Source of the DNA: a bacterium
Lineage (GTDB): Bacteria > Auribacterota > UBA3054
DNA: 64,000 nucleotides
NCBI GenBank assembly: GCA_017963805.1
Contig: JAGCTE010000015.1
Coordinates: 122,350-186,349 of the forward strand
Reading direction: 5' to 3'
Positions 872-62,361 of this stretch are shown piece by piece (positions within the stretch are counted from its first letter, which is position 1; each line of letters starts with the position of its first letter). The notes below the pieces were generated by a model. That model ran no database searches. It saw only the letters and a list, made by a program, of their open reading frames with translations, and was not told the DNA's origin. Made by a program: the position numbers and the translations under genes.

Positions 872-872
872 A

Positions 873-2285: not shown

Positions 2286-2286
2286 T

Positions 2287-3606: not shown

Positions 3607-3959
3607 ACCTTGCCGCCGCCGTTCTGGTCATATTGGCTGTAATTGCTTTTTTCTCCTTTGTTGATCCGACCGCGTCTCCGTTTTTTCCCCGCTGCTCCTT
3701 CCGCGCCCTCACCGGCTTCGACTGCCCGGGCTGCGGCACCTCCCGCGCGCTTCACAGCCTTGCGCACGGACATCTGATCGAAGCCTTCAGCTACAATCCC
3801 ATCCTCTTTCTGGCCATCCCCACCGTAATAATCCTCGTCTTCTCCAAGAGGGCCAGACGTTCCGTCGCGCTCCCCATCGTCGTCCTCGTCGTCATCCTGC
3901 TCTACTGGGTCATAAGAAACCTCCCGCAATTCCAGTCCCTCCTTCAGTCCCTCCGCTGA
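3585..3959 (+). CDS. DUF2752-like small membrane protein (CPGCG motif)
   Basis: About 124 aa counted from the internal Met (MDGRAKINL...). Has a TM helix, then FDCPGCGTSRALH. The long upstream part of ORF 3375..3959 overlaps prmA and is discounted. Confidence 0.55.
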   Translation: MDGRAKINLAAAVLVILAVIAFFSFVDPTASPFFPRCSFRALTGFDCPGCGTSRALHSLAHGHLIEAFSYNPILFLAIPTVIILVFSKRARRSVALPIVVLVVILLYWVIRNLPQFQSLLQSLR

Positions 3960-4532: not shown

Positions 4533-4931
4533 TCAATTCAGCTTGAAGGAGGAGGGGAGTAGGGCGGAGAGAGTCGTCTCCTGGTAGGTGCCGTCGGTCT
4601 TGGCCATGAGGATAATGAGGTCGCCCTTGGGGGAGAATTCCGAGAGCACTTGCCGGCAGATGCCGCAGGGGACGGCGAATTCGGTTTCGTTGTAGCAGAG
4701 GGCGATGGCTGTTGGATCCGCGCCGCCGTTTACGATCATGTTGCAAACGGCGGCGCGTTCCGCGCAGATGGTGGCGCCGTAGGAGGCGTTCTCGATGTTG
4801 CAGCCCGTGAAGACTGTTCCGTTCTTCGTAAGGATGGCGGCGCCCACTTTGAATTTGGAATAGGGGGCGTAGGCCTTTTCCCTGGCTTCTATGGCCTGAT
4901 TAACGAGTTCCTGCGCGGTCTTGGTATCCAT
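4533..4931 (-). CDS. cdd: Cytidine deaminase
   Basis: 132 aa. Zinc-binding motifs CAERAA and PCGICRQ. Its start codon abuts or overlaps the mksB stop. Confidence 0.85.
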   Translation of the reverse strand: MDTKTAQELVNQAIEAREKAYAPYSKFKVGAAILTKNGTVFTGCNIENASYGATICAERAAVCNMIVNGGADPTAIALCYNETEFAVPCGICRQVLSEFSPKGDLIILMAKTDGTYQETTLSALLPSSFKLN

Positions 4932-7900
4932 TATTTTTTGCCTTTCGGTTTTGATTTAGCTTTGGCTTTCGGCTTCGCTTTGGGAGCGGGCTTTTTGGCG
5001 GCGGGCTTTTTCACGGCTTTTTTCGGCGCCGCTTTTTTCGCTTTGGTTTTTGCGGGAGCGGGCTTCTTTTCTTCCTTGGGATCTTCGGGTTTTTCCGGTT
5101 CGGGAGCGGCTTTCACGCCGATGGTGAAGCTTTCCTCTTCGTCGTTCTGACTGAAGATGTCCATTTGCTGGCCTTCCTGGGATTCCCAGACGAAGTTGCC
5201 GATGAAGATCTCGTTATTGGCGTTCTTCTCGAGGAGCAGCGTTGTGGATTCCCTCATGGCTTCCGTGACGCCGTCCATTTCCGGGGTGGCGATGACAAGG
5301 GAGAGGCCAAGTCTGTTGGCGAAGCGCAGAAGTTCTTCCCTCCTTTCCGCGTCGATGCCGTAGAAAGCCTCGTCGAATAAGAGGAAGCGGATCTTGGCGC
5401 CGATCTGGTTGTAGAGAAGCGCGCTCATGGCCATGATGAGCAGGTAGTTCGGCACGGCCTGTTCGCCGCCCGATCCGAGGCGGCGGATGTCGTTCGTCAG
5501 CTCGATGCCCTCGCCCTCGGTGCCTGTCACTTTCACGTGCAGCTGGTAGTCGAACCAGTGGCGGTAGTCGAGGAAGGAGGGGAGAGAGCCGTCGGGCTGC
5601 ATGCGCAGTTCCCCGATCTTCGATTCGAAGAAGGCTTTCAGCTGTTCCTGGCTGTCCTCGTCGATGTCGCCGGCTCTTCTTACGATGCCGTAGACCTGGC
5701 GGTACTCCCCTTTGATCTTCTGGGTGAAGCGGTATTGGGAGCGGCCGAAAGAGAGGCCTTCCAGCATGAGGTTGACGGCTTCAAGACTTTCCTTGAGGCG
5801 GTAGAGGTCGCGGGTGTACTGGTTGGAGAGGTCGCCGAGGATGGTCTTTTCGAGAAGCTTCCTTCTGTTTTCGGAAACGGAATTCTCGAGCTGCGTTAGC
5901 TGGTCGTTCAACCTTGCCGTTATGGTCTTGAGGTCGCGGCCGTCCTGGTCGATGAGGTCGTTGATGTCTTCGCGGTAGGTGAAGGCGTACTTGGTCCAGA
6001 GCAGCTCGTGGTGGATCAAGCCGCCTTTCGAGCGGGAGTCGTCGCTGCCAACTAAGCTTCCGATCTCGCGGTTGATGACGCGCTCCTGGATCTTGATTAT
6101 TTCAGCGAGCCTGCCTTCCTGGACGTTCTCGGCGCCGTAGGTCTCCTTAAGGTAGCTCTCGAGGTCGGGGTATTCCTCGCCGAGGCGGTCCTCAAGGATC
6201 TTCTTCTTGTCGGCCGCCTGGTTGATGGCCTCGTTGTAGCTGAGTCTGGTCTTGGCGTTCTGGGCCTCTAAGATGGAGACGCGCTCTTTGTAGCGGGCGA
6301 TCATCTCGACAAGCTCCTCGCGTTCCTTTTCCTCGTCGTTCAAACGTTTCTTAAGGATGTCTAATTGCTTGTGGATGTCGCCGGTGGTCTGGAACTGCTT
6401 GTCTTCCCTGAGTTCCTTGATCTGCTTGGTTATCCTCGCGATCTGGCGCTGGGATCTGGCCTGCTGGCTCTGGGCCGTCTCGACTCTTTCCTTTATCTCG
6501 GCAAGGAGATTGTCGTTGGCGGCTCTCTGCGTCAAGCGGTGGGCGATGAGCCAGGGCGAGACTTTTTCCTCGAGCAGGATCTTGATCTTGTATACGGCTT
6601 CTATGGTCTCGCTGAGATTGCCCTGCTTTTTCCCAAGTTCGTCGGCGATGTTGGATAGCTCTTTGTTTTTGATCTTCTGTTCGGTCAAAAGTTTTTCCTG
6701 GGCGGCCTGGCGGCGCGCTTTGCCGAGCAAGCCTTCCGCTTCGCGCTTGACGTAGCGGTAAACGGCGCGTTCTTTCACAAGGCCTTCCCTGGAGAGCCAG
6801 TCGCCGTCGGGGGTGGCGGCTAGGTCGCAGATCCTTATCTTGCCGAGCTGCGTGTCGACGAAGCAGCGGGCGTAGCCGTTTGCCGTCTTCAAGTATTTGG
6901 CCAAAGAGTTTTCCAGGGGCTTCGGGCTCTTAGTGGCCATGAGCTTCGAGGTGTCGGCGATCCTGATACCGGGGTTGGCTTTGCCAGCCAACCTTATGAC
7001 GGCTTCGAGATCGTCCTCTTCGGGGATGATGGTGCCGAGCCACTCGTCGCCAAGGAAAGACTCTATGAGGTTCATGAGCTGGGGCGGCGTGTTGGGCGCG
7101 AAATCAAGCATGGTGAAGAGCGGTTCGGCTTTCAAGCCCTCCCTCTTTACGGCGTCAAGGAAATCGCGGTAGCCGATTATCCTCGGCATCACTTCCATGA
7201 TTGGGACGGAGGCTTTTATTTCGCTTTCCTTCGTGAGGTCGGCAAGGCGCAGTGTGAGCGTCTGCTTTTCGTCCCTCAGGGCCTGCAGAAGATTGTCGGC
7301 AGATCTTATCGCCAGCTTTTGCGAGCGGGAGAGCGCCTCGGTGTCGCATTCGGCCGTTTCCTCGGCGTTCTTGTAGGCTTTCTTCAGCGAGGCGACGGTC
7401 TTCGAGAGATGAAGGGCCGCTTCGTTCACTGTCTCGGGGCAGGTGGGAAGCGATACGGTCTTTATGACGGCGTTCTGGGAGCGGATGGCTTCCAATACGT
7501 CGGCGCCGGCGTTCGCCTTGTCTTTTTCAAGCGTGGCCTGCTTTTGCAGTTCTTTTTCCGTCTCTTCCTTGAAGGTGACGGAATCCTCTTTCAGTTTCGC
7601 CAAGTCCTTTTCAAGGCGTTCGGCTTCTTCCCAAAGTTTGGCGCCGGTGCCGGTCCGAACTTCGGCAAGCGTGGTCCTTGTCTGCTCGAGCTTGGGCAGC
7701 AGGTCGTCGAGCTTGTTCTTCGCGTCGATCTGGTTCTGGCGGTTGACGGCCACGGCCCTTTCCTGGCTCTTCAGTTCGGAGGCGAGGTTGTTGAGGGAGT
7801 TTCTCAGCCTCAGGTAGCGGCACTCCTCGATCCTTGTTTTTGAAGCGGTGATCTTGGAAACGGTCTTGTTTGCTTCGTCAAGAAGTTCGGCTTCTTTTTT

Positions 7901-8683
7901 TAGGCCTTTGATGTCGCTCTCTATGGTCTCGAGGTTCTGCAGCGTCGTCTCGATGTCCTGGAAGACCTGATGGTCGGGGGCGGGGAGAAGAGCCGCGAAG
8001 AGGCCTTCGAAGTCTCTGGCCTTGACGACCAGGTCCTTGTAGGATTTGCTGGCTTTTAAGAGATCCGCCACGCGCTCGAAATTTGAGCGGCCGCCGAAGA
8101 AGCGGTTCGCGACTTGCGTGCGGTAGCGGCCGATGTCGTAAACTCTCGTCTTGCCGATCAGGCCGGGCAGTTCCTTTTTGTCCACCGGGCGGTACTGGGG
8201 CGCTTCGGAAACGTCGTTCACCCTTATCGTAAGCTGGACTTCGGATAGGGGAGCGTCCACTATGAAGCCCCACATCTCGGGTCTTTGGTCAAGGTTTTCC
8301 GCGAAGGCGCCGACGCCGATCGTCACAGGGTTCTGGCTCTTGGGGTCGAGGAGCTCCAAGGCGACATATCCTACCGCGCCGCCGGCTCTGCCCACCTTGC
8401 CGGTCTCGAAGTTGTGCTGCAAAAGAACGCCGGAGAGGCTGCGGCCGGATTCGGACCTGCCGCCGATCACGGTGGCGGCGTTGAACATCAGTCTCTGTCC
8501 GCCGGTCAATGCCAGCTGCACCGCGTCGATGATGGTCGTCTTGCCGGTTCCGTTGTTGCCCATCAGAAAGAGGCTGCCGTGGATATTGATGGTCTCGTCA
8601 GCGAAGTTATGGAAGTTGATGAGGCGCAGGGCCCTTAAGTTCAAAGCGTTTTCCCAACTGTGGTTTCCGTTCATCGTGTTCAC
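4931..8683 (-). CDS. mksB: MukB-like SMC ATPase MksB (Wadjet JetC-like) with a C-terminal lysine/alanine/proline-rich histone-H1-like tail
   Basis: 1250 aa. N-terminal Walker A GNNGTGKTT, very long coiled-coil middle, C-terminal Walker B/D-loop LLFDEAFYGID. The last ~60 aa read KPAPAKTKAKKAAPKKAVKKPAAKKPAPKAKPKAKAKSKPKGKK. It is the third gene of the mksF-mksE-mksB operon. Confidence 0.8.
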   Translation of the reverse strand: MNTMNGNHSWENALNLRALRLINFHNFADETINIHGSLFLMGNNGTGKTTIIDAVQLALTGGQRLMFNAATVIGGRSESGRSLSGVLLQHNFETGKVGRAGGAVGYVALELLDPKSQNPVTIGVGAFAENLDQRPEMWGFIVDAPLSEVQLTIRVNDVSEAPQYRPVDKKELPGLIGKTRVYDIGRYRTQVANRFFGGRSNFERVADLLKASKSYKDLVVKARDFEGLFAALLPAPDHQVFQDIETTLQNLETIESDIKGLKKEAELLDEANKTVSKITASKTRIEECRYLRLRNSLNNLASELKSQERAVAVNRQNQIDAKNKLDDLLPKLEQTRTTLAEVRTGTGAKLWEEAERLEKDLAKLKEDSVTFKEETEKELQKQATLEKDKANAGADVLEAIRSQNAVIKTVSLPTCPETVNEAALHLSKTVASLKKAYKNAEETAECDTEALSRSQKLAIRSADNLLQALRDEKQTLTLRLADLTKESEIKASVPIMEVMPRIIGYRDFLDAVKREGLKAEPLFTMLDFAPNTPPQLMNLIESFLGDEWLGTIIPEEDDLEAVIRLAGKANPGIRIADTSKLMATKSPKPLENSLAKYLKTANGYARCFVDTQLGKIRICDLAATPDGDWLSREGLVKERAVYRYVKREAEGLLGKARRQAAQEKLLTEQKIKNKELSNIADELGKKQGNLSETIEAVYKIKILLEEKVSPWLIAHRLTQRAANDNLLAEIKERVETAQSQQARSQRQIARITKQIKELREDKQFQTTGDIHKQLDILKKRLNDEEKEREELVEMIARYKERVSILEAQNAKTRLSYNEAINQAADKKKILEDRLGEEYPDLESYLKETYGAENVQEGRLAEIIKIQERVINREIGSLVGSDDSRSKGGLIHHELLWTKYAFTYREDINDLIDQDGRDLKTITARLNDQLTQLENSVSENRRKLLEKTILGDLSNQYTRDLYRLKESLEAVNLMLEGLSFGRSQYRFTQKIKGEYRQVYGIVRRAGDIDEDSQEQLKAFFESKIGELRMQPDGSLPSFLDYRHWFDYQLHVKVTGTEGEGIELTNDIRRLGSGGEQAVPNYLLIMAMSALLYNQIGAKIRFLLFDEAFYGIDAERREELLRFANRLGLSLVIATPEMDGVTEAMRESTTLLLEKNANNEIFIGNFVWESQEGQQMDIFSQNDEEESFTIGVKAAPEPEKPEDPKEEKKPAPAKTKAKKAAPKKAVKKPAAKKPAPKAKPKAKAKSKPKGKK

Positions 8684-8688
8684 CTAAT

Positions 8689-9432
8689 TTAAAAATTTTC
8701 CTGTTCGTTCTCTTCTTCCGCCGTCTCTTCACCGTCGCTCTTCAGGCTGTCCGTTTTGGAATAGAGCCTGGCGATCTCCTTGAAGGTGAGGACGTCCGGG
8801 CGGTAGCAGTGGATGCCCGGGAGGAATTCGTACATTACCTGCTGCTCGAGGCCTTCCGGCAGACGCTCGTCCTTTCCGACGTCCGCTTTTTCCTTCTGCT
8901 CGATGAAGCGGTATTTGATGAGCTTCGGGAAGAGCGTGCGGCAGGCGTCGACGATCGCTTTCTCGCTCGATTCGCCGTCCTCGAGCTCCTCGTTGAAACG
9001 GTTAAAGCAGTACTGCACAAAGTCGGAGATCAAAAAGCGCAGCCTCTTGTCGTCGTCGTAATTGGAGTTGAAGTCGCGGAGCAGCTTCTCGTAGAATTCC
9101 AAGAGCAGCATGAAGACCGAGCACTCGTCCCTTCTCGTCAGGTCGAACATGTCCCTTTGCGAAGGCTTAAGGGAATTGTTGTAGAGCTGCGGCTTGATTA
9201 TCCTCGCGGCCTGGCGGTCGACGTAGAGCTCCCAGCCGAAGTAGCGCATGAAGAAATGGCCGACGGCTTCCTGGTTCAATCTCAGGTAGGCGAAGAGATC
9301 CGGGTCGTCCGTCTGGTAGAAGAAGGGCGATTCGAGAAGAATGTTGAGAAGCGCCCTGACGCTGTGGATGTTCAGAGAATCGATCTGGTCGGAGTAATTC
9401 TCCGCTTCGTTTTCAAAGTATTGTTCGTTCAT
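8689..9432 (-). CDS. mksE: MksE/JetB-like (MukE-like) condensin subunit
   Basis: 247 aa, acidic, helical. The size and its position between the MksF-like and MksB-like genes match DUF4194-type MksE. Confidence 0.6.
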   Translation of the reverse strand: MNEQYFENEAENYSDQIDSLNIHSVRALLNILLESPFFYQTDDPDLFAYLRLNQEAVGHFFMRYFGWELYVDRQAARIIKPQLYNNSLKPSQRDMFDLTRRDECSVFMLLLEFYEKLLRDFNSNYDDDKRLRFLISDFVQYCFNRFNEELEDGESSEKAIVDACRTLFPKLIKYRFIEQKEKADVGKDERLPEGLEQQVMYEFLPGIHCYRPDVLTFKEIARLYSKTDSLKSDGEETAEEENEQENF

Positions 9433-9438
9433 AGTTTT

Positions 9439-10980
9439 TTAGTTGTTTTCCTGAAAGTCTACGGTGTAGTCGGGGGAGGAGAAATACCATTTGCCTCCCT
9501 TGAACTCGGCCTGCGGCGCGTTTTTGTCAGGCTGCTTCAAGGTGTATCCCAAGCGGATCCCGTGCTTGCGTCCTATCTTGTAGAATTTGACGGAGTCCAT
9601 GTAGTTCCTGATGTCGTCCATGTTCTTCAAAGAGAACAAATGGATGGGGCCGCGTTGTCCCATGGGGTATGCTTTCAAAAGCATGAAGTCCCTTAGGCGT
9701 TTGGCCTTTGCCTTCTCCAGTTCGCGGCTGGCTTGGGCGGAGCCGGTCTTGGCGATTATGGCGGCGTTGCGGAAGGGCGGCCTGGCCGCGCGGCGGCGCC
9801 AGTAGTTGGGCCTCGGCGGGGGAACGCGGTCTTCCGGAGTGCCGCCGCCCATGTCGTTTATGATCTGTCCTACGGAGAAGAGCTCCCTTAGGAAAGACTT
9901 GATCTCGGGCAGGGCTTCGTCGGGAGCGCCGATGCATTCGTTGGCGCGGCGGCGCAGGATCCTGATCCTGATGTTGCGGTGCCTGATGTCGTCGAGGTAC
10001 TGCCTGATGCGGCTGATAAGTATCCTGACCTGCTCGTTGACTCTCAGGCAGAGGAGCTGGAAGATGCCTTCGGGAGCGAAGAAGGGGATAAGCCTAGCCA
10101 GCATCTGCTCTATTGGGTCCTCCTGCTCGGCCAGGGCGCCGGACAAAGGATTGTTCTCGGCGTGCAGCCTCATCGCTTCCCTGGCGTTCCTCAAGATGGC
10201 GAGCCCCTGCTGGGAGTTCCAGCGCGACAAAGCGCTGTAAACAGGCGGCGTCAGGTTGGCCACGCGCTGCAGATACTGGTCGACGTAGCGGGCCAGGCGG
10301 TCTATTATCTGCGGCAGAGTTTCAAGCTGGAAAGGCTCGATGTTGAAAGTCGCTATCCTGGCGCCGAAGTCGCTGATCTCGTTGGCGACCAGGCGGCAGC
10401 GGTTGTCGAGCTCACTTATGTTCCTTGCGAGCCTGCGCAGCTCCGTTTCCGAAAGATTTTCGCCGCGGGAGAGGCAGAGGCCGATCTTTTCGACGAGCTC
10501 CTGGAGGTCCAGGAGGTGGTCCTGGTCAAGCGAGACCGCGTTCAGGTTTTCCACTGAGCGCATGAGTGAAAGACTCTCGAGCAGCGCCCTGGTATGGTCG
10601 GTCAGGCGGTAGAGGAATTTCTGCACTCTCCTGTCGGCGATGTGCTGCAGCCTCTTCGGCTCGATGCGGCGCTCGACGTTGCCCCAGAGCATAAGCTGCT
10701 CCATGTCGGCCCGGAAGGCCTGCTGGCTGTAGGGGCCGGCGGTCTCCAAAAGCGACTGGACGGCGTCGTAGATGTCGTTGTGATATTTCTCGACTTCATG
10801 GGCCTGGCGGCGCAGGAAGAGGAAATACAGAATGGTGGCGTAATACCACCTGCGCTCGGAACTGAGGAAGGCGCAGTGACTGACTGGAAGCAGGTCCAGA
10901 AACGGAGGCTCCGGCGCCACAGCCTGAAAAAGATCGGGCTGCGGCGCGGGATCGATCTGTTCAATTATATTGTTGTCCAT
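9439..10980 (-). CDS. mksF: MksF/JetA-like (MukF/kleisin-like) condensin subunit
   Basis: 513 aa, first gene of the three-gene operon. The size and predicted helical nature match DUF3375-type MksF. Confidence 0.6.
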   Translation of the reverse strand: MDNNIIEQIDPAPQPDLFQAVAPEPPFLDLLPVSHCAFLSSERRWYYATILYFLFLRRQAHEVEKYHNDIYDAVQSLLETAGPYSQQAFRADMEQLMLWGNVERRIEPKRLQHIADRRVQKFLYRLTDHTRALLESLSLMRSVENLNAVSLDQDHLLDLQELVEKIGLCLSRGENLSETELRRLARNISELDNRCRLVANEISDFGARIATFNIEPFQLETLPQIIDRLARYVDQYLQRVANLTPPVYSALSRWNSQQGLAILRNAREAMRLHAENNPLSGALAEQEDPIEQMLARLIPFFAPEGIFQLLCLRVNEQVRILISRIRQYLDDIRHRNIRIRILRRRANECIGAPDEALPEIKSFLRELFSVGQIINDMGGGTPEDRVPPPRPNYWRRRAARPPFRNAAIIAKTGSAQASRELEKAKAKRLRDFMLLKAYPMGQRGPIHLFSLKNMDDIRNYMDSVKFYKIGRKHGIRLGYTLKQPDKNAPQAEFKGGKWYFSSPDYTVDFQENN

Positions 10981-18443: not shown

Positions 18444-18475
18444 GGGCGGACGGGGCAACCCGTCCGCTTTTTTTA
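18444..18475 (+). terminator. Rho-independent terminator
   Basis: GGGCGGACGGGGCAACCCGTCCGC stem followed by TTTTTTT. It marks the left edge of the AT-rich island. Confidence 0.6.
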
Positions 18476-18530
18476 TTTTCTTTTACTTGATTTTTTTGTA
18501 TAATGTTTGCGGATAAAAAACGAGGTATTT

Positions 18531-20354
18531 ATGAGACGAATTATTAAATTTTCCCTTTTTCTTTCTTTAGTTTTCATGTCATATGTTTGCTTTGCAAACG
18601 AGGATATGGATTTTTCTTCAAACTTCGAAAAAGAAAAAGATCTGCTTGAACGGATAACGAAACTTCAGGCTCAAGTAAAAGACATAAAAGGGCAATACAT
18701 TTCAATAACTTCCCAATTGGAGAAGATACAGTTAAACATTCCTAAAGGACTTGTAAATTTTCCAGACCTTTTTGTCATTAATGATGACACGCTTGTTGTC
18801 GGGCCAGACGGGAATATATATTATGACGGATATGATGTAAGAAACGTTTTATGTTCTATAAACGGTTATTACGAAAGCGATAATTCAACAAACAATACTG
18901 AGCAAACAAGATCGGGATATGTTACGACTGAGCAATTTAATCAATTGGCTAGTCTTGTCTTTTCGTTAAGCGCCAATTGCCAGACGCTTAGCAATAATCT
19001 AAGTTCGATATCAAATACTGTTTACAATATTACTCAGCAAATGAGCATGATGGCGGCTACTGTACAGTATTTATCAACTCAGTGCGAAAATCTCAGTCAA
19101 AAATGTGACCTGATAGATTCTGCAATAGACATAAAAGACGACGGCAGGATAGTGATGAACGCCACATCTCCAATAATAGGAATCATTGAACCTAATTTCA
19201 CACCTTCACTTTATTCTTATCCTTCTATTTGGAGTTGGGATGGAATATGTACTAAATTTAACGTTTCGACTAACTCGCATTTGAAAAGCATAACTTTGTA
19301 TTGCAATGATATCAATAAAATAATGTCACCAGAAAGCGTTTACGTTTCTACTGGTGTTCCCAATAATGGCAGCTATCAAATGGCCTATTGGTACTGCAAT
19401 AGCGTAAATACCAATAGATTTCCTTTGTGTACTTACTCTTTTTCAAACCCAATCCTTATTAGGTCCGACAGGTTCCATTTATTAGGAATACGAAAAATAG
19501 GTAATAACCTTATATATCCATATGTTTGCAATGGATACAGGAATGGCGGATTGTACAAGCCTTATGGAGCAAACGAGTCTGAACTTCCGGTGAGGGGAGA
19601 TGATCCGCCTGATCCTGGACCTAGGGTTGGGCCATCAGATCCGCCTATGACATTGTCAGAATTTATGAACATGACATTTGAGTATTATTGGGAACCTTGT
19701 TTCGATTCATATGAGTTATGGTCTGTGTTCAATTTTGTTGAAGACGTCGGATTTACCTTTGATAAACACGGACTTGAATTGAAAAGCGGAGATATATCGA
19801 TTGCAGGAACTAGGGTTGTAACTGATGAAAGCCTTGGCGTAGCATTAACCAACAAAGCGGAAGTTTTAGGAGGGAAAATATCTTGGGATTCTTTTTGCCA
19901 AGGATTGAAAGATTATCTTATTACTGTTAACGGCGGAACAATAACTGGAGAATTGTACATTGAAGATCTAATTTTGCCTAACAATGGCAGTTGGCTTATA
20001 GGAAATGCCACGACTAGATCAGATATAAAAATTAACAATCCTAATGGATGCATAACGACATCTTCTGGTGATTTAAATTTGGCTTGCAATGGAGAAGATA
20101 CAAAAATAATTGCACATGATTTTGTGCAGTTTAGCGATTCAGAACAATGTGGGAAAGTGGTTATAAGTGCTGGTAGCACTTCTGTGTCAATTGCATCAGA
20201 TCTTTCTTCGGATGCAGTTGTAACTGTAACCCCCTCTCAACAAACAGATGTCAAATACTGGGTTGAAATCAACAGTCTAGGCGATGGATCGATAGTTATA
20301 GATGATAGAACAAACTGTGATTTGAGTTTCTTTTACATGATTATGAGAAAATAA
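18531..20354 (+). CDS. Island protein 1: secreted protein with an N-terminal coiled-coil and a beta-helix-like Cys-containing C-terminal region. A paralog starts at 62362
   Basis: About 607 aa from MRRIIKF. Has a signal peptide, then a heptad-like stretch LERITKLQAQVKDIKGQYISITSQLEKIQ, then short repeated beta-strand-like units. Confidence 0.55.
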   Translation: MRRIIKFSLFLSLVFMSYVCFANEDMDFSSNFEKEKDLLERITKLQAQVKDIKGQYISITSQLEKIQLNIPKGLVNFPDLFVINDDTLVVGPDGNIYYDGYDVRNVLCSINGYYESDNSTNNTEQTRSGYVTTEQFNQLASLVFSLSANCQTLSNNLSSISNTVYNITQQMSMMAATVQYLSTQCENLSQKCDLIDSAIDIKDDGRIVMNATSPIIGIIEPNFTPSLYSYPSIWSWDGICTKFNVSTNSHLKSITLYCNDINKIMSPESVYVSTGVPNNGSYQMAYWYCNSVNTNRFPLCTYSFSNPILIRSDRFHLLGIRKIGNNLIYPYVCNGYRNGGLYKPYGANESELPVRGDDPPDPGPRVGPSDPPMTLSEFMNMTFEYYWEPCFDSYELWSVFNFVEDVGFTFDKHGLELKSGDISIAGTRVVTDESLGVALTNKAEVLGGKISWDSFCQGLKDYLITVNGGTITGELYIEDLILPNNGSWLIGNATTRSDIKINNPNGCITTSSGDLNLACNGEDTKIIAHDFVQFSDSEQCGKVVISAGSTSVSIASDLSSDAVVTVTPSQQTDVKYWVEINSLGDGSIVIDDRTNCDLSFFYMIMRK

Positions 20355-20356
20355 AA

Positions 20357-22930
20357 ATGAGATTCATACCATTAAAAACAAAAATCATATTGATTTTTAT
20401 GGCATTAATGTGTTCGCTAATGATTTTCGCGGATAATGATCATTTTTATTATTACTATTGTTTTAATAGAAATTCTATGACTAATGTTGCCATGGGTTTC
20501 CCGTTTGGGATTTGTGAAATCATCCAAAGCAAATTATGGATTAAAGTGGAAGGTCAAGGACATTTACCTACATTTATAGCGAATGTACCGTTGGAGAACA
20601 AAACGGCGACTGATGTTATATATAATGACTCTCAGGGAAATGAATACTTTCCGGATCGTGATTTTAAATTAGTGTTTCAATGGGATCAGGTTGATTATGA
20701 AGACATAGAGGCTGAAGATGAAGTTAGAGGGGATATATTAAAAGAATATTATGAAGATCCAGCCATAACAATATTACACGATGTCGATATTTATTGTTTT
20801 ACCCCGAATTACACCGCATACTGTATTGAGATGGATAATAGCAGTAATGTTAAAATGGAAATATCTGATAATAATTTAAATTATGTGCCATGCACATTTA
20901 CAGATAATATAGAAACTACTATTGGATCTGGAAACAATCATAAAAGATATTACAAAACGGATTGGATTAGAAATCACAAGTATTATATAAAAGTCTATGG
21001 TCATGATGAAATTAACGATTATTATTCATCGGTACATGATTATAGTTTTACCATTAGAAGCGTTAAACCTATCGTATTAGTACATGGCATTAATTCGCAT
21101 CCTATAGATTCTAATGATAACAAGACAGCTTTTGAATGCATAAAAAAACATTTACCTAGAGCTGATGATCTTGACCCTATTTTACCTCTTGATTTTCCGT
21201 GGAATGATTCAGTGGGGGAATATACAGATTATTGTTTGAATGACAACTACTCTTTGTCAACTTTTATAAATAATAATTGTCAATATCTTGATAAAAAACC
21301 AATTGTGATTTCTCATTCGATTGGTGGCATGTTGATAATGAGACAAATTATTAATAACGATAACATATTGGGTAAAATTGACAAATTTATTTTTTATGGA
21401 ACTCCTTTTTGCGGTTCTGATAAAGCAAGCTGGTGGCTAACAAAAAATATACATATAACAAGCAACGATAATTTAAATCACCTTAAAAGGGGCTCTAAAC
21501 ACATTTGGAATTTGCTATCTAATATTCCGTCTTCATTCATCAATGATAAGCAGTCCACCTATTTTTATGGCAGCTCTGGATTTATGTTCTTCTTAGTATA
21601 TGGCGGTATTGATAGTGATAGCGTTGTATCTATTTCGTCTGCAAATTTGCCCGCAACTTTAGGTTTATCTTCTCTGGCAATATCCATTGACAAGAATCAT
21701 ACAGATATGAAGAAGTTATCATTCCCTTGTGAAGAAGAAGATTTGGTTGTATACAATATTTTAAAGGAATACATTAACGAATCTCCAGATAATAATACTG
21801 TAAATAATATATTTGATCCTTTATTGCGATTTTTTGGAGAATATAATTCCGCCATTGAACTACAAATGATTGATTATCACGATTTTGATTTTTATGAAAT
21901 TGAATATAGAGATTCAAATTCCGGAACGGAAGATTGGACAACATTAAGAATAGTTGAGGGTGATATTGAAAACAACTTAAACTATTATCATAGTGGAATT
22001 CTAAATTATGATAGCCAGCCAATTTTGATTAGATTAAAAAGTGATCATTTAGATAAAGTCAGTGATATACATTCTGTTAATATTAATGCTGGTAAAACGA
22101 CTTTTTTTAAAATGAAAATTATTAACGGAATTGCTGGCGATGATGTTATTTCACATTCTCTTAGTAATGATTCTTCTCTTCCGTTTTATAATATTCAGTT
22201 TCGTTTAAAAAATTTACCTAGACCTTGGATTAAATTCAAATTGTTGTCGCCCCCTAGACATCATAGAGAATCAAGACATTTAAATGTTAGATGGGAATGT
22301 GTTGATAATAGTAGATCTGGCGAAGACTATTCTATTTGGCTAGTTGTTGGATCGCAAAATAATAATGTTATTGATAGAATCAACGTTACAAATCTAACAT
22401 CCTATAATCTGAGCTTTTCCGATTACAATATGCCTCAAGGAGAGTATTGGTGGAAACTTGTTGCTGAGAATAATACAGATGATTTGGTTGAAAGCGAAAA
22501 GCGACCTTTTCATGTGGTAAATCAAGACTATTTTGATGACTCTGACGGAGATGGCTATGATGATTATGAAGAGTATATAAGGCACTCCAATCCGTATGAT
22601 GCAAACGACATTCCATTAATAATTGATTCTGGTGAAATCTGTCCCTTAGCATATTTAGATCAACAATACTTTTATAAAATAGAGACCAGTTTCAGAAATA
22701 ATATTTCATGGAGTTATAGAGGAAAGTTGCCAGAAGGAATAAAGCTAAGTCACAATGGAATTTTAAGCGGCATGTCAAAAGAACTTGGAACTTTTAATTT
22801 CACAATTCTTGTTTGCGGTCCTGGGCTAAAAGAAGATCAAATCAATATGACCTTGGAAACTTTAATACCACCAAATTCTGAAGTTACAACTGGAACTGGA
22901 TATTTTAAATCAGAAGGAGAAGAAGAATGA
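20357..22930 (+). CDS. Island protein 2: secreted multidomain protein with a lipase class-2/PGAP1-like alpha/beta-hydrolase core, an FN3-like segment, an EF-hand-like loop and a C-terminal putative-Ig (He_PIG-like) repeat
   Basis: 857 aa. Signal peptide. PIVLVHGINSHP (oxyanion region) and VISHSIGGMLI (nucleophile elbow) sit ~80 aa apart, as in Bacillus LipA. Also DSDGDGYDDYEE and LPEGIKLSHNGILSGMSKELGTFNFTI. Confidence 0.6.
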   Translation: MRFIPLKTKIILIFMALMCSLMIFADNDHFYYYYCFNRNSMTNVAMGFPFGICEIIQSKLWIKVEGQGHLPTFIANVPLENKTATDVIYNDSQGNEYFPDRDFKLVFQWDQVDYEDIEAEDEVRGDILKEYYEDPAITILHDVDIYCFTPNYTAYCIEMDNSSNVKMEISDNNLNYVPCTFTDNIETTIGSGNNHKRYYKTDWIRNHKYYIKVYGHDEINDYYSSVHDYSFTIRSVKPIVLVHGINSHPIDSNDNKTAFECIKKHLPRADDLDPILPLDFPWNDSVGEYTDYCLNDNYSLSTFINNNCQYLDKKPIVISHSIGGMLIMRQIINNDNILGKIDKFIFYGTPFCGSDKASWWLTKNIHITSNDNLNHLKRGSKHIWNLLSNIPSSFINDKQSTYFYGSSGFMFFLVYGGIDSDSVVSISSANLPATLGLSSLAISIDKNHTDMKKLSFPCEEEDLVVYNILKEYINESPDNNTVNNIFDPLLRFFGEYNSAIELQMIDYHDFDFYEIEYRDSNSGTEDWTTLRIVEGDIENNLNYYHSGILNYDSQPILIRLKSDHLDKVSDIHSVNINAGKTTFFKMKIINGIAGDDVISHSLSNDSSLPFYNIQFRLKNLPRPWIKFKLLSPPRHHRESRHLNVRWECVDNSRSGEDYSIWLVVGSQNNNVIDRINVTNLTSYNLSFSDYNMPQGEYWWKLVAENNTDDLVESEKRPFHVVNQDYFDDSDGDGYDDYEEYIRHSNPYDANDIPLIIDSGEICPLAYLDQQYFYKIETSFRNNISWSYRGKLPEGIKLSHNGILSGMSKELGTFNFTILVCGPGLKEDQINMTLETLIPPNSEVTTGTGYFKSEGEEE

Positions 22931-25323
22931 AACTAGGCAAATCTTTAGTTATTGTTATTTTTTTGTTGATATTAAGCGCTTGGTCAACATCAAATTCTTA
23001 TTTAAATAAATACCCTGGCATAGTTGCTATAACTACCAAAAGTGGAAATGCATTATTCGGAAAAAGGGACGAGAACAAAATTTTCCTTAACAAGGGGGAT
23101 CTTTATGAGGAATGCGATGGATGCGGATATATATACGAAAAATACGGTTTTATAGATGACATGACCAGAAGTTTTATTAAAGAAAATATCGAGCCGTCTA
23201 GAACGCCGTATAAAAATGTTAATAAGGAGTTGGAAAAACAATATGATGATTTTCAATCCGTAATCAGAAGTAAAAAACTGCCCGATAATTGGGTTGATAA
23301 CCCGGAAGGTCGTTATCAGTCTATTAAAGAAGGACTTTTAAGGGAGATCGATCGTTTGAAGGTATCCGGAAATTCCAAAGCAGACGAAAAGATAAAACAG
23401 CTAAAGGCAGAATATGCCTTTTATACGAACCGATATAGCGATTCAAAAATATTTGAAAAAATATCAGATCCTGACTTTGACCTTGATCAGGATGGATTAA
23501 CCAATTTGGAAGAATTCTACTGTCAGTCAGACCCTCTTGTCAGAAGCGGGCTTGCCGTATCTCCGGCTTTTTATAAATTTACTCTTAACGACAGTCTTGT
23601 TTACACCGGTAAATTCAGTATTGCAAATTTGACAAACACCAACAGGACATATTCTATTTACAGTAGATATCAAAGTTCTGATAATCGTTATGCTCCCAAA
23701 ATCGTACCGCTAAATTCTAAATTTTGCGTAGATAAAAATGGTTATATGGTGTTTAACATACCTCCAAAATCGAAGCAGTATTTTTTGTATCTGTTAAATG
23801 CTGAATATCTACCTTATTGTTTTGGCAATCTTTATAGTGTCAGCGTAAGGATTAAAAACGATTTGGGATTTATGGGGACGGATCTTGGAAATGTAGTTTT
23901 TTATATGTTTGGCAACAAGGGGTCCGAGATTTCAAAGACGGATAATCTTTATCCGAAATCCGGCGCAAGATTACAGCCGGAGAACAATACTCTTTCATTT
24001 ATATGGAAATCTGGTGAGCGCAATATTTCGAAGAATAGAGAGGAAGAGATAAGGTATGTTATACAGTTTTATAATGCGGATAAAAAAATGGCTTTTGATT
24101 ATTTCTGTTTTACAAACAAGTTTTTTGCTCCGGCTAAGAATGATCTCAATACTTTCTCGCCAGGCATTTATTTTTGGAGAATCATAAAGCAAGATGCATT
24201 CAGCGCCCCTGCTTGTTCAGATTGGAATTGGTTCTCCATAGGGAAAAAAGCAGACGAAGGCTGCTCAAATACATTGGAAAAAGGAAAGAGATTAATTCCG
24301 GAGAAAAAATATAATTGTGGAATAGCCTATTACGATATGTATAAAGGAATTCCATTTGATTTTGATATTTGTCCGCTGAAAGCTTCTGAAAAACAACCTT
24401 TCATTTACAAACTTCCAAAAGATTTTGAATGTTTTTTCGATGACAATTATTGGCATTTAAAGGGAACCCCTCATGAAGTCGGAAGATGGACAAACATGTG
24501 GTTCCGTATTAAGGCGGATAGGGCCTGGACTAACATTTGTGTTTTTAGTGTTTATGATCCTGCCGAAGAGATTTTGTCGCGTTCTTTTTACGATTTGGGT
24601 AAGAAAGCTGTTGTTCATGATTTAACAGTTGATTATCGATTCGAATATCCATTGCAAAGTTATTTTGATATCATTTCTAAAACTTCTGATACCGTTTTAA
24701 GCAAAGATTATTCTGTCAAGATCTCACCAGATCTTCCGGATGGATTGACTTTATCATTTGAAGACGGAAGATATATCATATCCGGTATTCCTAAAAATGT
24801 CGGCGAGTTTATTGCAGAAATAACTTATGAAAAGGATAATTTGCTCAAAGAAAAGCATATTTTTAATATACGCACAAGCAAAAATCCCAAGCCGCTTACT
24901 TTTGCCGAAGAGTGGAATGTCGTTTACCTAAGCGAAGAACCTTGGGGGCATTACCAATATTTCATGGTGGGGTTTAAAAAAGGAATGGTCAGGCATATTT
25001 TGAGCGATGAAAAAAGTGTCAGATATCCTTTATCTCTAGATTATCTAGCGTATGGGAGAAAACGTATTATGCTTGATTCTTATGAAACTAGTTTTGGACA
25101 AAAGAGGAGAGCATATAAAAAGCACGACGAAAATCAGCAGGAAGTAGAATTGTTATCGCCTCTCCCCAACGGCATAAGGTTAGAAGAAAGCGACGGCAAA
25201 TTTTACCTTGAATGTGAATTGCGTTCAGTTGGAGCTTTTACGAATCTTATCAGGATAGTCAGTCAAGATGGCGTATATACAAACATGCATATTTTCAGAG
25301 TAGAAAAAGTAAAAACCCAATAA
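22927..25323 (+). CDS. Island protein 3: secreted protein with an EF-hand-like loop and several putative-Ig (He_PIG-like) repeats
   Basis: 798 aa. Signal peptide. Its start overlaps the gene 2 stop (ATGA). Has DLDQDGLTNLEE, and repeats LPDGLTLSFEDGRYIISGIPKNVGEF and LPNGIRLEESDGKFYLECELRSVGAF. Confidence 0.5.
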   Translation: MKLGKSLVIVIFLLILSAWSTSNSYLNKYPGIVAITTKSGNALFGKRDENKIFLNKGDLYEECDGCGYIYEKYGFIDDMTRSFIKENIEPSRTPYKNVNKELEKQYDDFQSVIRSKKLPDNWVDNPEGRYQSIKEGLLREIDRLKVSGNSKADEKIKQLKAEYAFYTNRYSDSKIFEKISDPDFDLDQDGLTNLEEFYCQSDPLVRSGLAVSPAFYKFTLNDSLVYTGKFSIANLTNTNRTYSIYSRYQSSDNRYAPKIVPLNSKFCVDKNGYMVFNIPPKSKQYFLYLLNAEYLPYCFGNLYSVSVRIKNDLGFMGTDLGNVVFYMFGNKGSEISKTDNLYPKSGARLQPENNTLSFIWKSGERNISKNREEEIRYVIQFYNADKKMAFDYFCFTNKFFAPAKNDLNTFSPGIYFWRIIKQDAFSAPACSDWNWFSIGKKADEGCSNTLEKGKRLIPEKKYNCGIAYYDMYKGIPFDFDICPLKASEKQPFIYKLPKDFECFFDDNYWHLKGTPHEVGRWTNMWFRIKADRAWTNICVFSVYDPAEEILSRSFYDLGKKAVVHDLTVDYRFEYPLQSYFDIISKTSDTVLSKDYSVKISPDLPDGLTLSFEDGRYIISGIPKNVGEFIAEITYEKDNLLKEKHIFNIRTSKNPKPLTFAEEWNVVYLSEEPWGHYQYFMVGFKKGMVRHILSDEKSVRYPLSLDYLAYGRKRIMLDSYETSFGQKRRAYKKHDENQQEVELLSPLPNGIRLEESDGKFYLECELRSVGAFTNLIRIVSQDGVYTNMHIFRVEKVKTQ

Positions 25324-25337
25324 TTTTACGGGCTTTT

Positions 25338-25682
25338 TTACTTGAAAATAAAGTAGCAGGCGGCCACCATGCAGAGGGCGGCGTAGAGGAAGTTCCAGGA
25401 AACTTTCTCTTTCATGATGAAGATCGCGAAGGGAACGAAGACGGAGAGAGTGACGATCTCCTGGGTGATCTTCATCTGCATCAGGGTCAGCGACTGGTTG
25501 CCGAAGCGGTTGGCCGGGATCATGATGCTGTATTCGAAGAAGGCTATTATCCAGCTTGTTAGAATGGCGAGGAAAACAGGGGCGTCCGCTTTGTTCTTCA
25601 AATGGTAGTACCAAGCGAAGGTCATGAAGATGTTGGAGAGGACGAGCATGGAGGCGTAGAGGAAAAAATGGGCGAATTTCAT
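25338..25682 (-). CDS. Small DMT-superfamily-like membrane protein (DUF486-like)
   Basis: 114 aa and wholly hydrophobic, with about 4 predicted TM helices. Confidence 0.45.
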   Translation of the reverse strand: MKFAHFFLYASMLVLSNIFMTFAWYYHLKNKADAPVFLAILTSWIIAFFEYSIMIPANRFGNQSLTLMQMKITQEIVTLSVFVPFAIFIMKEKVSWNFLYAALCMVAACYFIFK

Positions 25683-56035: not shown

Positions 56036-56150
56036 TATTAATGTATAATTATCTTGGTTTTTTTAAGGTATTAATTTTCAAGGTCTTGTTTTGTATAATC
56101 TTAGGTACAAATCTGTGGAAATTTTTAATCAACGAACAAAAGGCGTTTTT

Positions 56151-62271: not shown

Positions 62272-62309
62272 AAAAAAAGGCGGAGGAATTTTTCCTCCGC
62301 CTTTTTTTG
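62272..62309 (+). terminator. Rho-independent terminator
   Basis: GGCGGAGGAATTTTTCCTCCGCC followed by TTTTTTT. Confidence 0.65.
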
Positions 62310-62310
62310 T

Positions 62311-62339
62311 TTGACATTTTTGGAGAAACATTATACAAT
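62311..62339 (+). promoter_or_regulatory. Near-consensus sigma70 promoter (TTGACA, 17-nt spacer, TACAAT) driving the second copy of island gene 1
   Basis: Hexamers and spacer read directly. AAAGGAG sits 8 nt before the ATG at 62362. Confidence 0.55.
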
Positions 62340-62361
62340 AATAGAGAAAGGAGTGGCTATT

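Follow-up and report, generated by a model that had tools for sequence, protein, structure and literature searches.

Within the window, the whole 64,000-nucleotide stretch of DNA that we analyzed from an uncultured rumen bacterium, a block of AT-rich sequence splits the 3' intergenic spacer of two convergent host genes, a 233-aa gene and a DMT_6 gene. The block carries three genes (g1, g2 and g3), and the start of a related block lies at the far end of the window. The features are as follows.

18444-18479, + strand: intrinsic terminator of the host 233/235-aa gene (hairpin at 18444-18469, then a T-tract); a flank feature outside the insert
18481-18490, no strand: left copy of the 10-bp direct repeat TTTTACTTGA, at the junction
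18491-25335, + strand: inserted AT-rich island, 6,845 bp between both repeat copies, delimited by GC contrast and empty sites
18497-18504, + strand: predicted extended -10 promoter element TGTATAAT, read directly at the left edge of the island
18531-20354, + strand: g1, predicted exported coiled-coil fibre-like protein, 607 aa, with signal peptide, helices and β-sandwiches
20357-22930, + strand: g2, predicted exported multidomain serine hydrolase, 857 aa, domains assigned from weak or local matches
22927-25323, + strand: g3, predicted exported β-rich protein, 798 aa, with TSP3 and He_PIG-like domains
25336-25345, no strand: right copy of TTTTACTTGA, a perfect 10-bp match to the left copy
25338-25682, - strand: host DMT_6 (DUF486) gene (Pfam PF04342, 135.6 bits), right flank, convergent with the island
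62311-64000, + strand: start of a second, paralogous cassette, AT-rich and running off the window

Composition and organization of the island

In 500-bp windows, the GC content was 0.54 to 0.59 up to about 18.2 kb, 0.27 to 0.40 over 18.25 to 25.25 kb, and 0.53 to 0.58 past 25.5 kb. The original prediction had described a drop from about 60% to about 30%; the drop is real but smaller, from about 56% to about 34%. GC3 showed the same contrast: it was 0.32, 0.25 and 0.33 in g1, g2 and g3, respectively, versus 0.69 to 0.81 in 11 host genes. On its coding strand, the island had exactly three ORFs of 80 aa or longer, at the positions and of the lengths originally given; g1 and g2 are separated by 2 nt, and g2 and g3 overlap by ATGA, also as claimed. 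An alternative TTG start at 18507 would extend g1 to 615 aa. A putative ribosome-binding site, GAGG, lies at 18522-18525, 5 nt 5' of the g1 ATG. The promoter element TGTATAAT was not listed by a consensus promoter scan because of its poor -35, and it is kept in an older allele of the island (L057).

It was also proposed that the island lies exactly between two terminators. The left hairpin is indeed strong (11-bp stem with 8 GC pairs, -22.4 kcal/mol, z of -5.2), but as the terminator of the host 233-aa gene it also occurs, unchanged, in the empty sites L013 and L009, whereas the hairpin 3' of g3 is weak and nonsignificant (-8.9 kcal/mol, z of -1.6).

An abrupt change of composition in a metagenomic source might reflect foreign AT-rich DNA joined to a high-GC contig by an error of assembly or binning. 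We give this explanation almost no weight. Identical junctions recurred in ENA, Logan and NCBI assemblies, on no fewer than 11 independent contigs of which some exceed 200 kb, and because these contigs come from different samples and assemblers, the island junctions are not an assembly artifact. The junction repeat and the empty sites also agree with a clean insertion.

Empty sites and horizontal spread

In relatives with an empty site, the 233-aa gene and the convergent DMT_6 gene are about 70 bp apart. The island was absent from loci L009 to L016, L025 to L029 and L031, and the site was empty in each of the six GTDB species representatives that cover it, with an intact spacer and one repeat copy. 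The alignment of the left flank to an empty site stops at position 18490, and that of the right flank begins at 25337 (L013) or 25340 (L009), so that in L013, 9 bp are covered by both alignments. With repeat starts at 18481 and 25336, the net insertion is 6,855 bp, one repeat copy included. The right copy includes the stop codon of the DMT_6 gene (TAA, - strand, 25338-25340), and the left copy has decayed to TTTTATTTGA in the older allele. The repeat may be what a transposition event left behind, or else a recombination core or microhomology. We found no integrase or transposase, and no terminal inverted repeat.

We then compared the island with its flanks. The island was about 99.97% identical between genomes whose flanks share just 88 to 94%. 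In locus L005, only 2 mismatches with the window were found over the 6.9-kb island, while the flanks showed 10 to 18% mismatches per 250 bp on the left, as far as 18408, and 4 to 12% on the right, beyond 25700; L007 and L008 followed the same pattern. These loci were fetched by an exact match to g2, a procedure that is biased toward identical islands, not toward diverged flanks. In one genome pair, the dS of the island genes was 0.09 to 0.20, versus 0.57 for the adjacent DMT_6 gene. Since a near-identical island sits inside such diverged flanks, the comparison indicates that the island spread horizontally in the recent past. Together with the empty sites and the 10-bp junction repeat, this bears out the horizontal acquisition that had been proposed.

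Alternatively, the locus could be ancestral and deleted in the relatives, its AT-richness being the product of local mutation or selection rather than of foreign origin. The restriction of the family to one host lineage, its AT-rich composition across deep divergence and the presence of the older allele (94 to 96% identical) at the same site are in line with this idea, and the decayed remnant of another cassette in L025 indicates that deletions do happen. However, the intact spacers of the six empty representatives, a flank divergence of 6 to 12% around an almost invariant island, a dS well under that of the flank, and a near-identical cassette at two unrelated sites make an ancestral origin very unlikely.

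Predicted properties of the three proteins

The N termini of all three proteins fit an n-region, a hydrophobic h-region and a small-residue site, as had been predicted. Read by eye, the signal peptides are MRRIIKFSLFLSLVFMSYVCFA followed by NED in g1, MRFIPLKTKIILIFMALMCSLMIFA followed by DND in g2, and MKLGKSLVIVIFLLILSAWS followed by TSN in g3; the AF2 models place helices at residues 2-22 of g1 and 6-25 of g2. The description as a coupled operon whose three products are exported is supported. None of the three C termini ends in PEP-CTERM, in agreement with the original prediction, and that of a host 844-aa BACON_2 protein reads ...VPEPAALVALIALLALGIRRR. In Pfam, NCBIfam and PHROGs scans, no protein reached a curated family threshold, as expected from the initial failure to name a family, and the g1, g2 and g3 families are very rare (3 to 22 clusters among 5.8 billion). 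The two AF2 models are of low quality (mean pLDDT of 51 and 44), and the domain assignments below rest on weak or local matches. Because the dN/dS was 0.15 to 0.28 (0.147 for g1, 0.276 for g2 and 0.237 for g3), a range of purifying selection, the analysis shows the island genes to be functional, as judged from substitution rates.

In the g1 model, helices at 29-69 and 133-196 are followed by a β-sandwich at about 222-335, a Pro-rich linker at about 350-372 and a C-terminal β-sandwich at about 540-607. Of the coiled-coil and beta-helix-like parts originally proposed, the coiled coil was upheld, but no beta-helix-like part was recovered, the confidently modeled regions being β-sandwiches. The g1 family comprises 22 homologue clusters and is mosaic, with exchangeable C-terminal modules: over four segments, homologues P0105 and P0110 share 94, 97, 88 and 50% identity, and P0112 and P0122 share 52, 43, 62 and 82%.

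Long coiled coils broken by short β elements, terminal β-sandwiches and mosaic C-terminal exchange are also seen in phage tail fibres, tailspikes and other receptor-binding proteins, and in reovirus sigma-1. The island might then be a remnant of a degraded prophage or tailocin, with g1 as tail fibre or tailspike and g2 and g3 as tail-associated depolymerase-type proteins. Phage baseplate, tailspike and tail-fibre proteins top the fold searches with the g1 model; tailspike C-domains from two libraries match the C-terminal sandwich of about 72 residues (prob 1.0, rmsd of 2.7 to 3.3 Å); and the coiled coil weakly matches sigma-1 (E of 0.24). However, the structural matches are local or have global TM-scores of only 0.09 to 0.17, and the viral library favors fibres for any long extended model. 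The resemblance of g1 to phage receptor-binding proteins is weak. Unlike those proteins, g1 has a Sec signal peptide, as do g2 and g3, and none of the eight contexts contained other phage genes. No named PHROGs family was matched (g1 and g3 hit unnamed families of unknown function at E of at least 0.004, and g2 hit none), and no relatives were found in plasmid collections, among 2.9 million IMG/VR contigs or in 50,697 phage genomes. We consider a phage origin improbable.

The g2 protein contains a PPC/collagen-binding-like β-sandwich at about 110-235, which resembles the ColG collagen-binding domain (E of 7e-5, target TM of 0.64), and a predicted α/β-hydrolase core at about 236-475. The core has HG at 243-244 and a Ser321-Asp421-His448 triad, and the catalytic residues are invariant or nearly so across 11 homologues, which agrees with the lipase-like hydrolase core originally recognized. 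Beyond the core, the protein continues with β-rich domains, one TSP3 repeat (728-749) and, at about 780-835, a He_PIG-like Ig domain. Like the minimal α/β-hydrolase lipases (Bacillus lipase A family I.4; Pfam Abhydrolase_6 and LCAT), g2 has an oxyanion VLVHG motif, an H-S-x-G-G nucleophile elbow, and conserved Asp and His in the expected order. Its best sequence matches, to LCAT and Abhydrolase_6 in Pfam and to Bacillus lipase A and BlEst2 in the PDB, are weak and under curated thresholds (20.0 versus 21 bits; 17.5 versus 26.3). Unlike these lipases, g2 has Ser, not Gly, as the first elbow residue, and its core, modeled with a pLDDT below 50 over most of its length, is set in a protein with a PPC-like sandwich, TSP3 and He_PIG. 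We infer that g2 is a lipase/esterase-like enzyme.

The original prediction also offered an effector or toxin role. In one such reading, g2 would be a phospholipase or lipase toxin whose targets are rival bacteria or the membranes of the host, protozoa or fungi, with g1 and g3 as delivery or targeting subunits. The lipase-like triad fits such a role, and the N-terminal sandwich of g2 is also like the receptor-binding C-domain of Clostridium perfringens enterotoxin. A class-B homologue of g2 weakly matches the Tle3 phospholipase effector (E of 0.015, below the cut-off), and strain-variable presence and mosaic, fast-diverging parts are typical of conflict genes. However, the island has no small immunity-like gene, the ±10 kb around it yielded no family of the T6SS, T7SS or CDI type, and contact-dependent effectors do not typically carry Sec signal peptides; the toxin proposal found no specific support. 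PADLOC gave no match, the family scans of g1 to g3 listed no toxin family, and what variant cassettes add is a glycosidase-like enzyme, not toxin domains. We regard a toxin function as unlikely, if less so than a phage origin.

The g3 protein has a TSP3 repeat at about 175-204 and He_PIG-like Ig domains at about 590-650 and 740-785, and no enzymatic motif was found in it. The Ca-loop and putative Ig repeats noted at the outset in g2 and g3 are therefore present in both, as TSP3 and He_PIG-type domains. A single TSP3-type Ca-loop followed by Ig-like domains is also found in PVC He_PIG/TSP3 surface proteins (NCBIfam Amuc_1099, pilus-like), and the TSP3/Ig segment of this family is the sole NCBIfam match of g2 and g3. 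Membership was rejected at 13 to 16 bits against a 50-bit cut-off, with about 25 to 30 residues covered. No pilus, secretin or assembly genes adjoin the island.

A family of related cassettes

The second cassette in the window begins with a predicted promoter, TTGACA-17-TACAAT, at 62311-62339, 3' of a host terminator (62279-62308). Its g1 paralogue begins at 62362, is 57% identical to g1 and continues past the window end. The cassette is complete in L021 and L042, with four genes (599, 468, 373 and 793 aa), and L056 is the empty version of this 62.3-kb site. Chromosomal sites with related cassettes number at least 8, and the cassettes are always AT-rich in hosts of about 56% GC. Paralogues in the same genome are 26 to 57% identical and both have a GC of about 0.32 to 0.39, so that AT-richness is kept across deep divergence. 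One class-B cassette occurs at two unrelated sites (88.5% identity over 10.5 kb). The cassettes are ORF-tight, with homology from about 45 bp 5' of g1 to the last stop codon; sister cassettes adjoin tRNA-Gln, and some variants add an α-galactosidase-like enzyme. The family is rare and undescribed, carries no mobility genes of its own, and all members seen so far lie in the chromosomes of a single uncultured lineage of ruminant-gut bacteria. This lineage probably falls in the PVC group; one flanking protein has its nearest outside relatives in Opitutales and Planctomycetes.

The cassettes are comparable to AT-rich genomic islets that lack an integrase and carry surface or secreted operons. Shared features are the sharp compositional deviation, presence or absence among close relatives, a clean junction with a short direct repeat, the 3' intergenic location and the accessory exported cargo. 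Unlike such islets, the cassette has no integrase, transposase, terminal inverted repeat or long att-like repeat, and its family is multi-copy per genome, at 8 or more sites, ORF-tight and AT-rich despite deep divergence.

We favor, as the probable explanation, a strain-variable, horizontally exchanged accessory operon that encodes a surface-binding and ester-hydrolyzing module. The promoter at the left edge would produce a single tricistronic mRNA, tight coupling would ensure co-production of the three proteins, and Sec would export them. The two coiled-coil segments of g1 may let it trimerize into a fibre, with its exchangeable C-terminal β-modules binding targets or docking partner proteins. 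g2 would supply the substrate-binding sandwich and a Ser-Asp-His esterase/lipase, and attachment would fall to g3 and the g2 C terminus, with their Ca-binding TSP3 loops and Ig-like He_PIG domains. The three proteins could together form a cell-surface or released module that combines binding with ester hydrolysis. The payload would differ by cassette, and homologous recombination in the conserved flanks would be the simplest route of spread at a given locus. What the first reading had overlooked is that the island belongs to a cassette family with multiple copies and sites, and that a second copy begins in the same window.

Composition, junctions and exchange of the island

The AT-rich island at 18491-25335 holds three genes, g1, g2 and g3, predicted to encode a coiled-coil fibre-like protein, a lipase-like protein and a β-rich Ig/TSP3 protein:

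18531-20354, +, g1, open reading frame of 607 aa
20357-22930, +, g2, open reading frame of 857 aa
22927-25323, +, g3, open reading frame of 798 aa

The sharp fall in GC content that had been predicted was borne out by the windowed profile, which was 0.54-0.59 until about 18.2 kb, 0.27-0.40 at 18.25-25.25 kb and 0.53-0.58 past 25.5 kb. The third-position GC content was 0.32 in g1, 0.25 in g2 and 0.33 in g3, against 0.69-0.81 in 11 host genes of the window. The open reading frames also agreed with the proposed gene coupling, with a 2-nt gap between g1 and g2 and an ATGA overlap between g2 and g3. All three N-termini read as classical Sec-type signal peptides, as the original prediction had it, and no C-terminus has the PEP-CTERM whose absence had been claimed, unlike the host 844-aa BACON_2 protein, which ends in ...VPEPAALVALIALLALGIRRR. 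Terminators had been placed at both edges of the island: the left one is strong (-22.4 kcal/mol, z -5.2) and is a property of the upstream host gene, whereas the hairpin after g3 was no better than shuffled sequences (z -1.6). An Rfam match to an L20 leader over the host terminator was below threshold and was dismissed. Since at least 11 independent contigs, drawn from several assemblies, show the identical arrangement, an assembly artefact was ruled out.

The island lies between a host gene for a 233-aa protein on the left and a convergent DMT_6 gene (DUF486, -) on the right. In 90%-identity relatives of the 233-aa protein (loci L009-L016), the DMT_6 gene follows after about 65-70 bp and the island is absent. 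The flanking S10 peptidase (88-98% identity) led to seven GTDB species representatives from the same uncultured lineage of ruminants, and the site was empty in all six whose contigs span it (L025-L029, L031). A perfect 10-bp direct repeat, TTTTACTTGA, stands at 18481-18490 and 25336-25345; the DMT_6 stop codon sits inside the right-hand copy, and the empty sites have a single copy. The flank alignments to empty sites abut with overlaps of 6-9 bp, and the breakpoints fall at 18490 and 25337, with a 9-bp overlap in the empty sequence. The breakpoints and the 10-bp repeat therefore define an insertion of 6,855 bp.

Deviant composition and codon usage, empty sites in relatives and flanking direct repeats, all of which are marks of a genomic island, were thus found. 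No mobility gene (integrase, transposase or relaxase) was found, the three long open reading frames matching no recombinase family in Pfam, NCBIfam or PHROGs. A search of the island for terminal inverted repeats and long direct repeats found none, and a tRNA search across the window found none, so the insertion is not tRNA-adjacent. It could have arisen by transposition-type duplication, through a short recombination core or by microhomology.

We then compared the island with its closest copies. Locus L005 differs from the window at 2 positions across the 6.9-kb island, while its left flank has 10-18% mismatches per 250 bp up to 18408 and its right flank 4-12% past 25700. Loci L007 and L008 showed the same identical island in diverged flanks. 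All three were retrieved by an exact g2 match, a bias to identical islands that does not account for the diverged flanks. A second island allele, 94-96% identical, occupies this site in a different set of samples, with its left repeat copy decayed to TTTTATTTGA. Between the two alleles, dN/dS was 0.147 for g1, 0.276 for g2 and 0.237 for g3, and the island genes had a dS (0.09-0.20) well under the 0.57 of the neighbouring host DMT_6 gene. The simplest reading is that the island is an accessory block segregating in a recombining population and spreading at the locus via homologous recombination in the flanks. That the island is ancestral and was deleted in relatives, rather than gained here, is contradicted by the identical islands within diverged flanks and by the finding of one cassette at unrelated sites. 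The horizontal acquisition first proposed is supported by the empty sites, the junction repeat and the near-identical island in diverged flanks, and the horizontal, accessory and functional status of the island is well supported.

A rare cassette family at several sites

Relatives of the three proteins are few. Among 5.8 billion 90%-identity clusters, we found 22 homologue clusters for g1, 11 for g2 and 3 for g3, all unnamed and, where the source was checked, from ruminant-gut metagenomes. An HMMER profile search with g3 of 1.84 billion representatives returned only about 25-30 full-length relatives. JGI metagenomes gave 2 loci only. The g1 profile had no relative among 185,579 GTDB species representatives, IMG/VR viral contigs had none of g1 or g2, and tblastn gave no match for g1 or g3 in INPHARED phages or for g1 or g2 in PLSDB plasmids. 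Pfam, NCBIfam, PHROGs and PADLOC scans of g1, g2 and g3 gave nothing above threshold, in keeping with the claim that the three fit no named family. Coiled-coil matches (DUF16, IcmG/DotF and others) were compositional and were set aside.

The loci with related cassettes were as follows:

62279-64000, on past the window end, second AT-rich stretch (cassette 2); full copy at L021 10001-16728 and L042 12650-19377
L018-20, sister cassette between a metallophosphatase gene and thiC
L056, sister cassette 5' of an AddB-like gene
L017 and L053, sister cassettes beside tRNA-Gln and a GH2 gene, two different variants at one site
L017 6154-6227 and L053 20584-20657, tRNA-Gln(CTG) adjoining the cassette site
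L061, sister cassette between a NAGLU gene and an EF-G gene
L051, sister cassette at a further site
L025 2569-5081 and L030 785-3142 (two species representatives), decayed remnant between SpaA-like and aminotransferase genes

Cassette 2 is in the same MAG, its g1 homologue (57% identity) starting at 62362, 34 genes downstream. It has four genes (599-468-373-793 aa), the g2 equivalent being split in two, and a promoter, TTGACA-17-TACAAT; it begins directly after a strong host terminator, that of the third BACON_2/PEP-CTERM gene. In L056 the cassette 2 site is empty and the other cassette lies about 6 kb away.

Class A cassettes consist of g1, a lipase-like protein (fused or split) and a g3-like protein, and class B cassettes of g1, a lipase-like protein, two TSP3/He_PIG proteins and a melibiase-like protein. 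At the tRNA-Gln(CTG) site, the L017 and L053 variants are a 3-gene class A and a 5-gene class B cassette; their right flanks share 88.5% identity, a sign of cassette replacement at that locus. One class-B cassette was found at two unrelated sites (88.5% identical, 10.5 kb), the homology running from about 45 bp 5' of g1 to the last stop codon; comparison of the two sites showed no conserved end motif, and no upstream element is common to the cassettes beyond -10-like boxes. The GC content of every family member is low (0.29-0.45), against about 0.55-0.58 in the flanks. Since the family holds 30-40% GC across deep divergence in chromosomes of about 56% GC, an unsampled AT-rich reservoir or a selection or mutation bias is possible.

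The remnant in L025 and L030 consists of a lone g3-like gene, with 41% identity to g3, preceded by no more than the final 47 codons of a g2-like one, which is evidence that cassettes erode by deletion. In L024, the lipase-like gene of cassette 2 has an additional T in a T8 tract and a GAG-to-TAG nonsense change (equivalent to L021 12848 and 12959), and L006 has a 2-bp deletion in the g3 signal-peptide region (equivalent to window 22976-22977). Sequencing error, pseudogenisation or slipped-strand switching could explain these inactivating changes, which are sporadic among samples. Another truncated paralogue was an N-gap artefact. With a single T8-tract case, the others being the artefact and the 2-bp deletion, the cases were too few to speak for or against phase variation via homopolymers.

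Other features were seen near the cassettes and elsewhere in the window:

4931-10980 (within), -, SMC/SbcC-like ATPase of 1250 aa (AAA_29, SbcC_Walker_B)
4931-10980 (within), -, DUF2398 protein of 247 aa and DUF2397 protein of 513 aa
53460-55982, 56091-58676 and 59713-62247, +, three tandem paralogous BACON_2 proteins of about 840-860 aa

The three-gene block at 4931-10980 has no obvious link to the island and resembles the TIGR02677-02680-type conserved system. A 305-aa sulfatase/phosphodiesterase-like gene separates the second and third BACON_2 genes, and at least the last BACON_2 protein has a terminal PEP-CTERM. In L027 (species representative RGIG7788), a different AT-rich insert (362-3642, GC 0.33-0.43) lies beyond the aminotransferase gene and, to judge from its translations, appears type I restriction-modification-like, with HsdM-like (554 aa) and HsdS-like (202 aa) proteins; since this is a cassette-type intergenic site, such sites collect unrelated AT-rich cargo. 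In the relative L015 (217-788), part of the BamA region, on its upstream side, is replaced by a toxin-antitoxin pair of RelB/ParE type and a gene with a Fib_succ_major domain; the place is probably the edge of a contig or of a rearrangement.

Predicted products and the phage and toxin readings

The 19-sequence alignment of g1 had a mean column identity of 68%. The AF2 model, poor overall (pLDDT 51), showed long helices (29-69 and 133-196) and, with moderate confidence, β-sandwiches (about 222-335 and 540-607). Of the coiled-coil and beta-helix-like architecture first described, the helices fit the coiled coil, but the β-helix was not recovered in the model. Fold searches with the poor g1 and g2 models were used for locally confident domains only. 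For g1 they gave no significant global match in PDB or BFVD (TM-scores 0.09-0.17), and the top entries in both were phage baseplate, tail-fibre or tailspike proteins; a C-terminal domain of about 72 residues matched tailspike C-domains locally (prob 1.0, in the model of pLDDT 51). Because the viral library favours long extended models, we treated the phage fibre match as resemblance only. The g1 profile matched only the sigma-1 coiled coil among PDB sequences (E 0.24). Its "GGTVTGxLTV" motif presumably resembles phage tail-fibre repeats; since g1 matched no Pfam phage-fibre family up to E 1, that likeness stays a mere lead.

It was considered that the island is a prophage remnant or a phage tail-fibre module, as the ranking of phage fibre and spike proteins highest in the g1 fold searches, at low global TM-scores, could suggest. 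That reading lacks homology: PHROGs gave g2 nothing, and g1 and g3 only unnamed families of unknown function (E>=0.004). Phage structural, lysis and integration genes were absent in 8/8 contexts examined, and the predicted signal peptides on all three proteins conflict with a phage origin.

Comparison of g1-family proteins segment by segment gave identities of 94/97/88/50% for P0105 and P0110, 87/73/89/99% for P0107 and P0110, and 52/43/62/82% for P0112 and P0122. By these identities, the family is clearly mosaic. In the few cassettes examined with context, the C-terminal module type tracks the downstream gene set, a pairing consistent with a variable tip for receptor binding or with a platform on which the partner proteins dock.

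In g2, a G/S-x-S-x-G elbow, an oxyanion HG, and catalytic Asp and His residues occur in the order of an α/β-hydrolase. Across 11 homologues, H243-G244, H320-S321-x-G323-G324, D421 and H448 were invariant or conserved to at least 90%, and these nucleophile-Asp-His motifs support the lipase-like core that had been suggested. The Pfam scores were below the curated thresholds (LCAT, 20.0 bits vs 21; Abhydrolase_6, 17.5 vs 26.3). The best matches in a PDB profile search were Bacillus lipase A-type enzymes and BlEst2 (E 0.03-0.3); a single-sequence search of PDB sequences gave no match. The AF2 model from 11 sequences was poor (pLDDT 44.5), with residues of about 290-350 alone moderately confident in the hydrolase fold, and fold matches to esterases/thioesterases were weak (ranks 1, 47 and 49). 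The confident N-terminal sandwich at about 110-235 matched a ColG collagen-binding (PPC-type) domain (E 7e-5, target TM 0.64) and also C. perfringens enterotoxin, in its receptor-binding domain. A putative TSP3 loop and a He_PIG-like domain lie in the C-terminal part of g2.

The He_PIG-like segment is all that g3 has in common with g2. The g3 alignment comprises only 4 sequences. A g3 profile matched Pfam-verified He_PIG repeat proteins at 590-650 and 740-785 and a Pfam-verified TSP3 protein at 175-204; a profile of g3 and its homologues had no match among PDB sequences, and no catalytic motif was found in g3. In the Pfam scan, g2 scored 17.6 bits for TSP3_bac (PF18884) against a gathering threshold of 25, and neither g2 nor g3 matched He_PIG (PF05345) directly, whereas the split g2 paralogue passes it (32.7 vs 24). 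The Ca-loop and Ig repeats originally ascribed to g2 and g3 are thus backed by the TSP3 and He_PIG-type matches of relatives and profiles. Both proteins also matched the Amuc_1099 family pilus-like system protein (NCBIfam NF042425), but at 16.4 and 13.4 bits against a cut-off of 50, with matches that are confined to about 25-30 TSP3-like residues rather than full-length.

The original prediction was of a secreted effector, toxin or adhesin cassette, and a sub-threshold Tle3 match of a class-B homologue might speak for the effector or toxin reading. That reading lacks context and is unlikely: the island has no small immunity-like open reading frame as a partner, and T6SS, Rhs, PAAR and VgrG families were absent among the genes called within ±10 kb.

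Proposed function and meaning

We infer that the cassette is a surface module for binding and ester hydrolysis, which the domain content and variant payloads fit. The three genes would be co-translated from one promoter at the island edge. The g1 product would be an exported coiled-coil fibre with exchangeable β-modules, g2 a substrate-binding serine esterase/lipase, and g3-type proteins Ig/TSP3 attachment proteins. The class-B α-galactosidase-like enzyme together with the lipase points, speculatively, to galactolipids.

A bolder proposal, which we consider unlikely as a whole, is an undescribed modular "fibre-led payload cassette" of one uncultured rumen lineage that is swapped and mobile and displays enzymes on an appendage. 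The conserved 5' fibre gene would serve as both structural stalk and recombination handle, and the g1 C-terminal module would be swapped as a unit with a downstream payload of enzyme and Ig protein, the enzyme being a lipase with or without the α-galactosidase-like enzyme. The ORF-tight, persistently AT-rich cassettes would move among intergenic sites close to terminators, by a mechanism that is trans-acting or non-canonical, and the surface appendage would present ester- and galactoside-cleaving enzymes, for example for harvesting plant galactolipids in the rumen.

We conclude that the island is genuine, an accessory operon that is exchanged horizontally, encodes three exported and uncharacterised proteins and belongs to a rare, undescribed modular cassette family. 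The AT-rich accessory islet is familiar as an element type; what is new is its protein families, the mosaic fibre gene and the occurrence at many sites without an integrase. The island provides a clean, junction-resolved case of gene flow still under way in an uncultured lineage of the ruminant gut, the 6.9-kb operon being essentially identical between genomes that differ by 6-12% beside it. It also defines three very rare protein families without curated annotation, and a modular cassette system whose GC content stays very low in a 56% GC host and which has no recognisable mobility gene. Should its function prove mundane, the island would still be useful for marking variation between strains. 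On the fibre-plus-lipase reading, if true, the cassette would represent an unrecognised way in which rumen bacteria bind and attack lipid or ester substrates, or other cells, and g2 would be a candidate new lipase scaffold.
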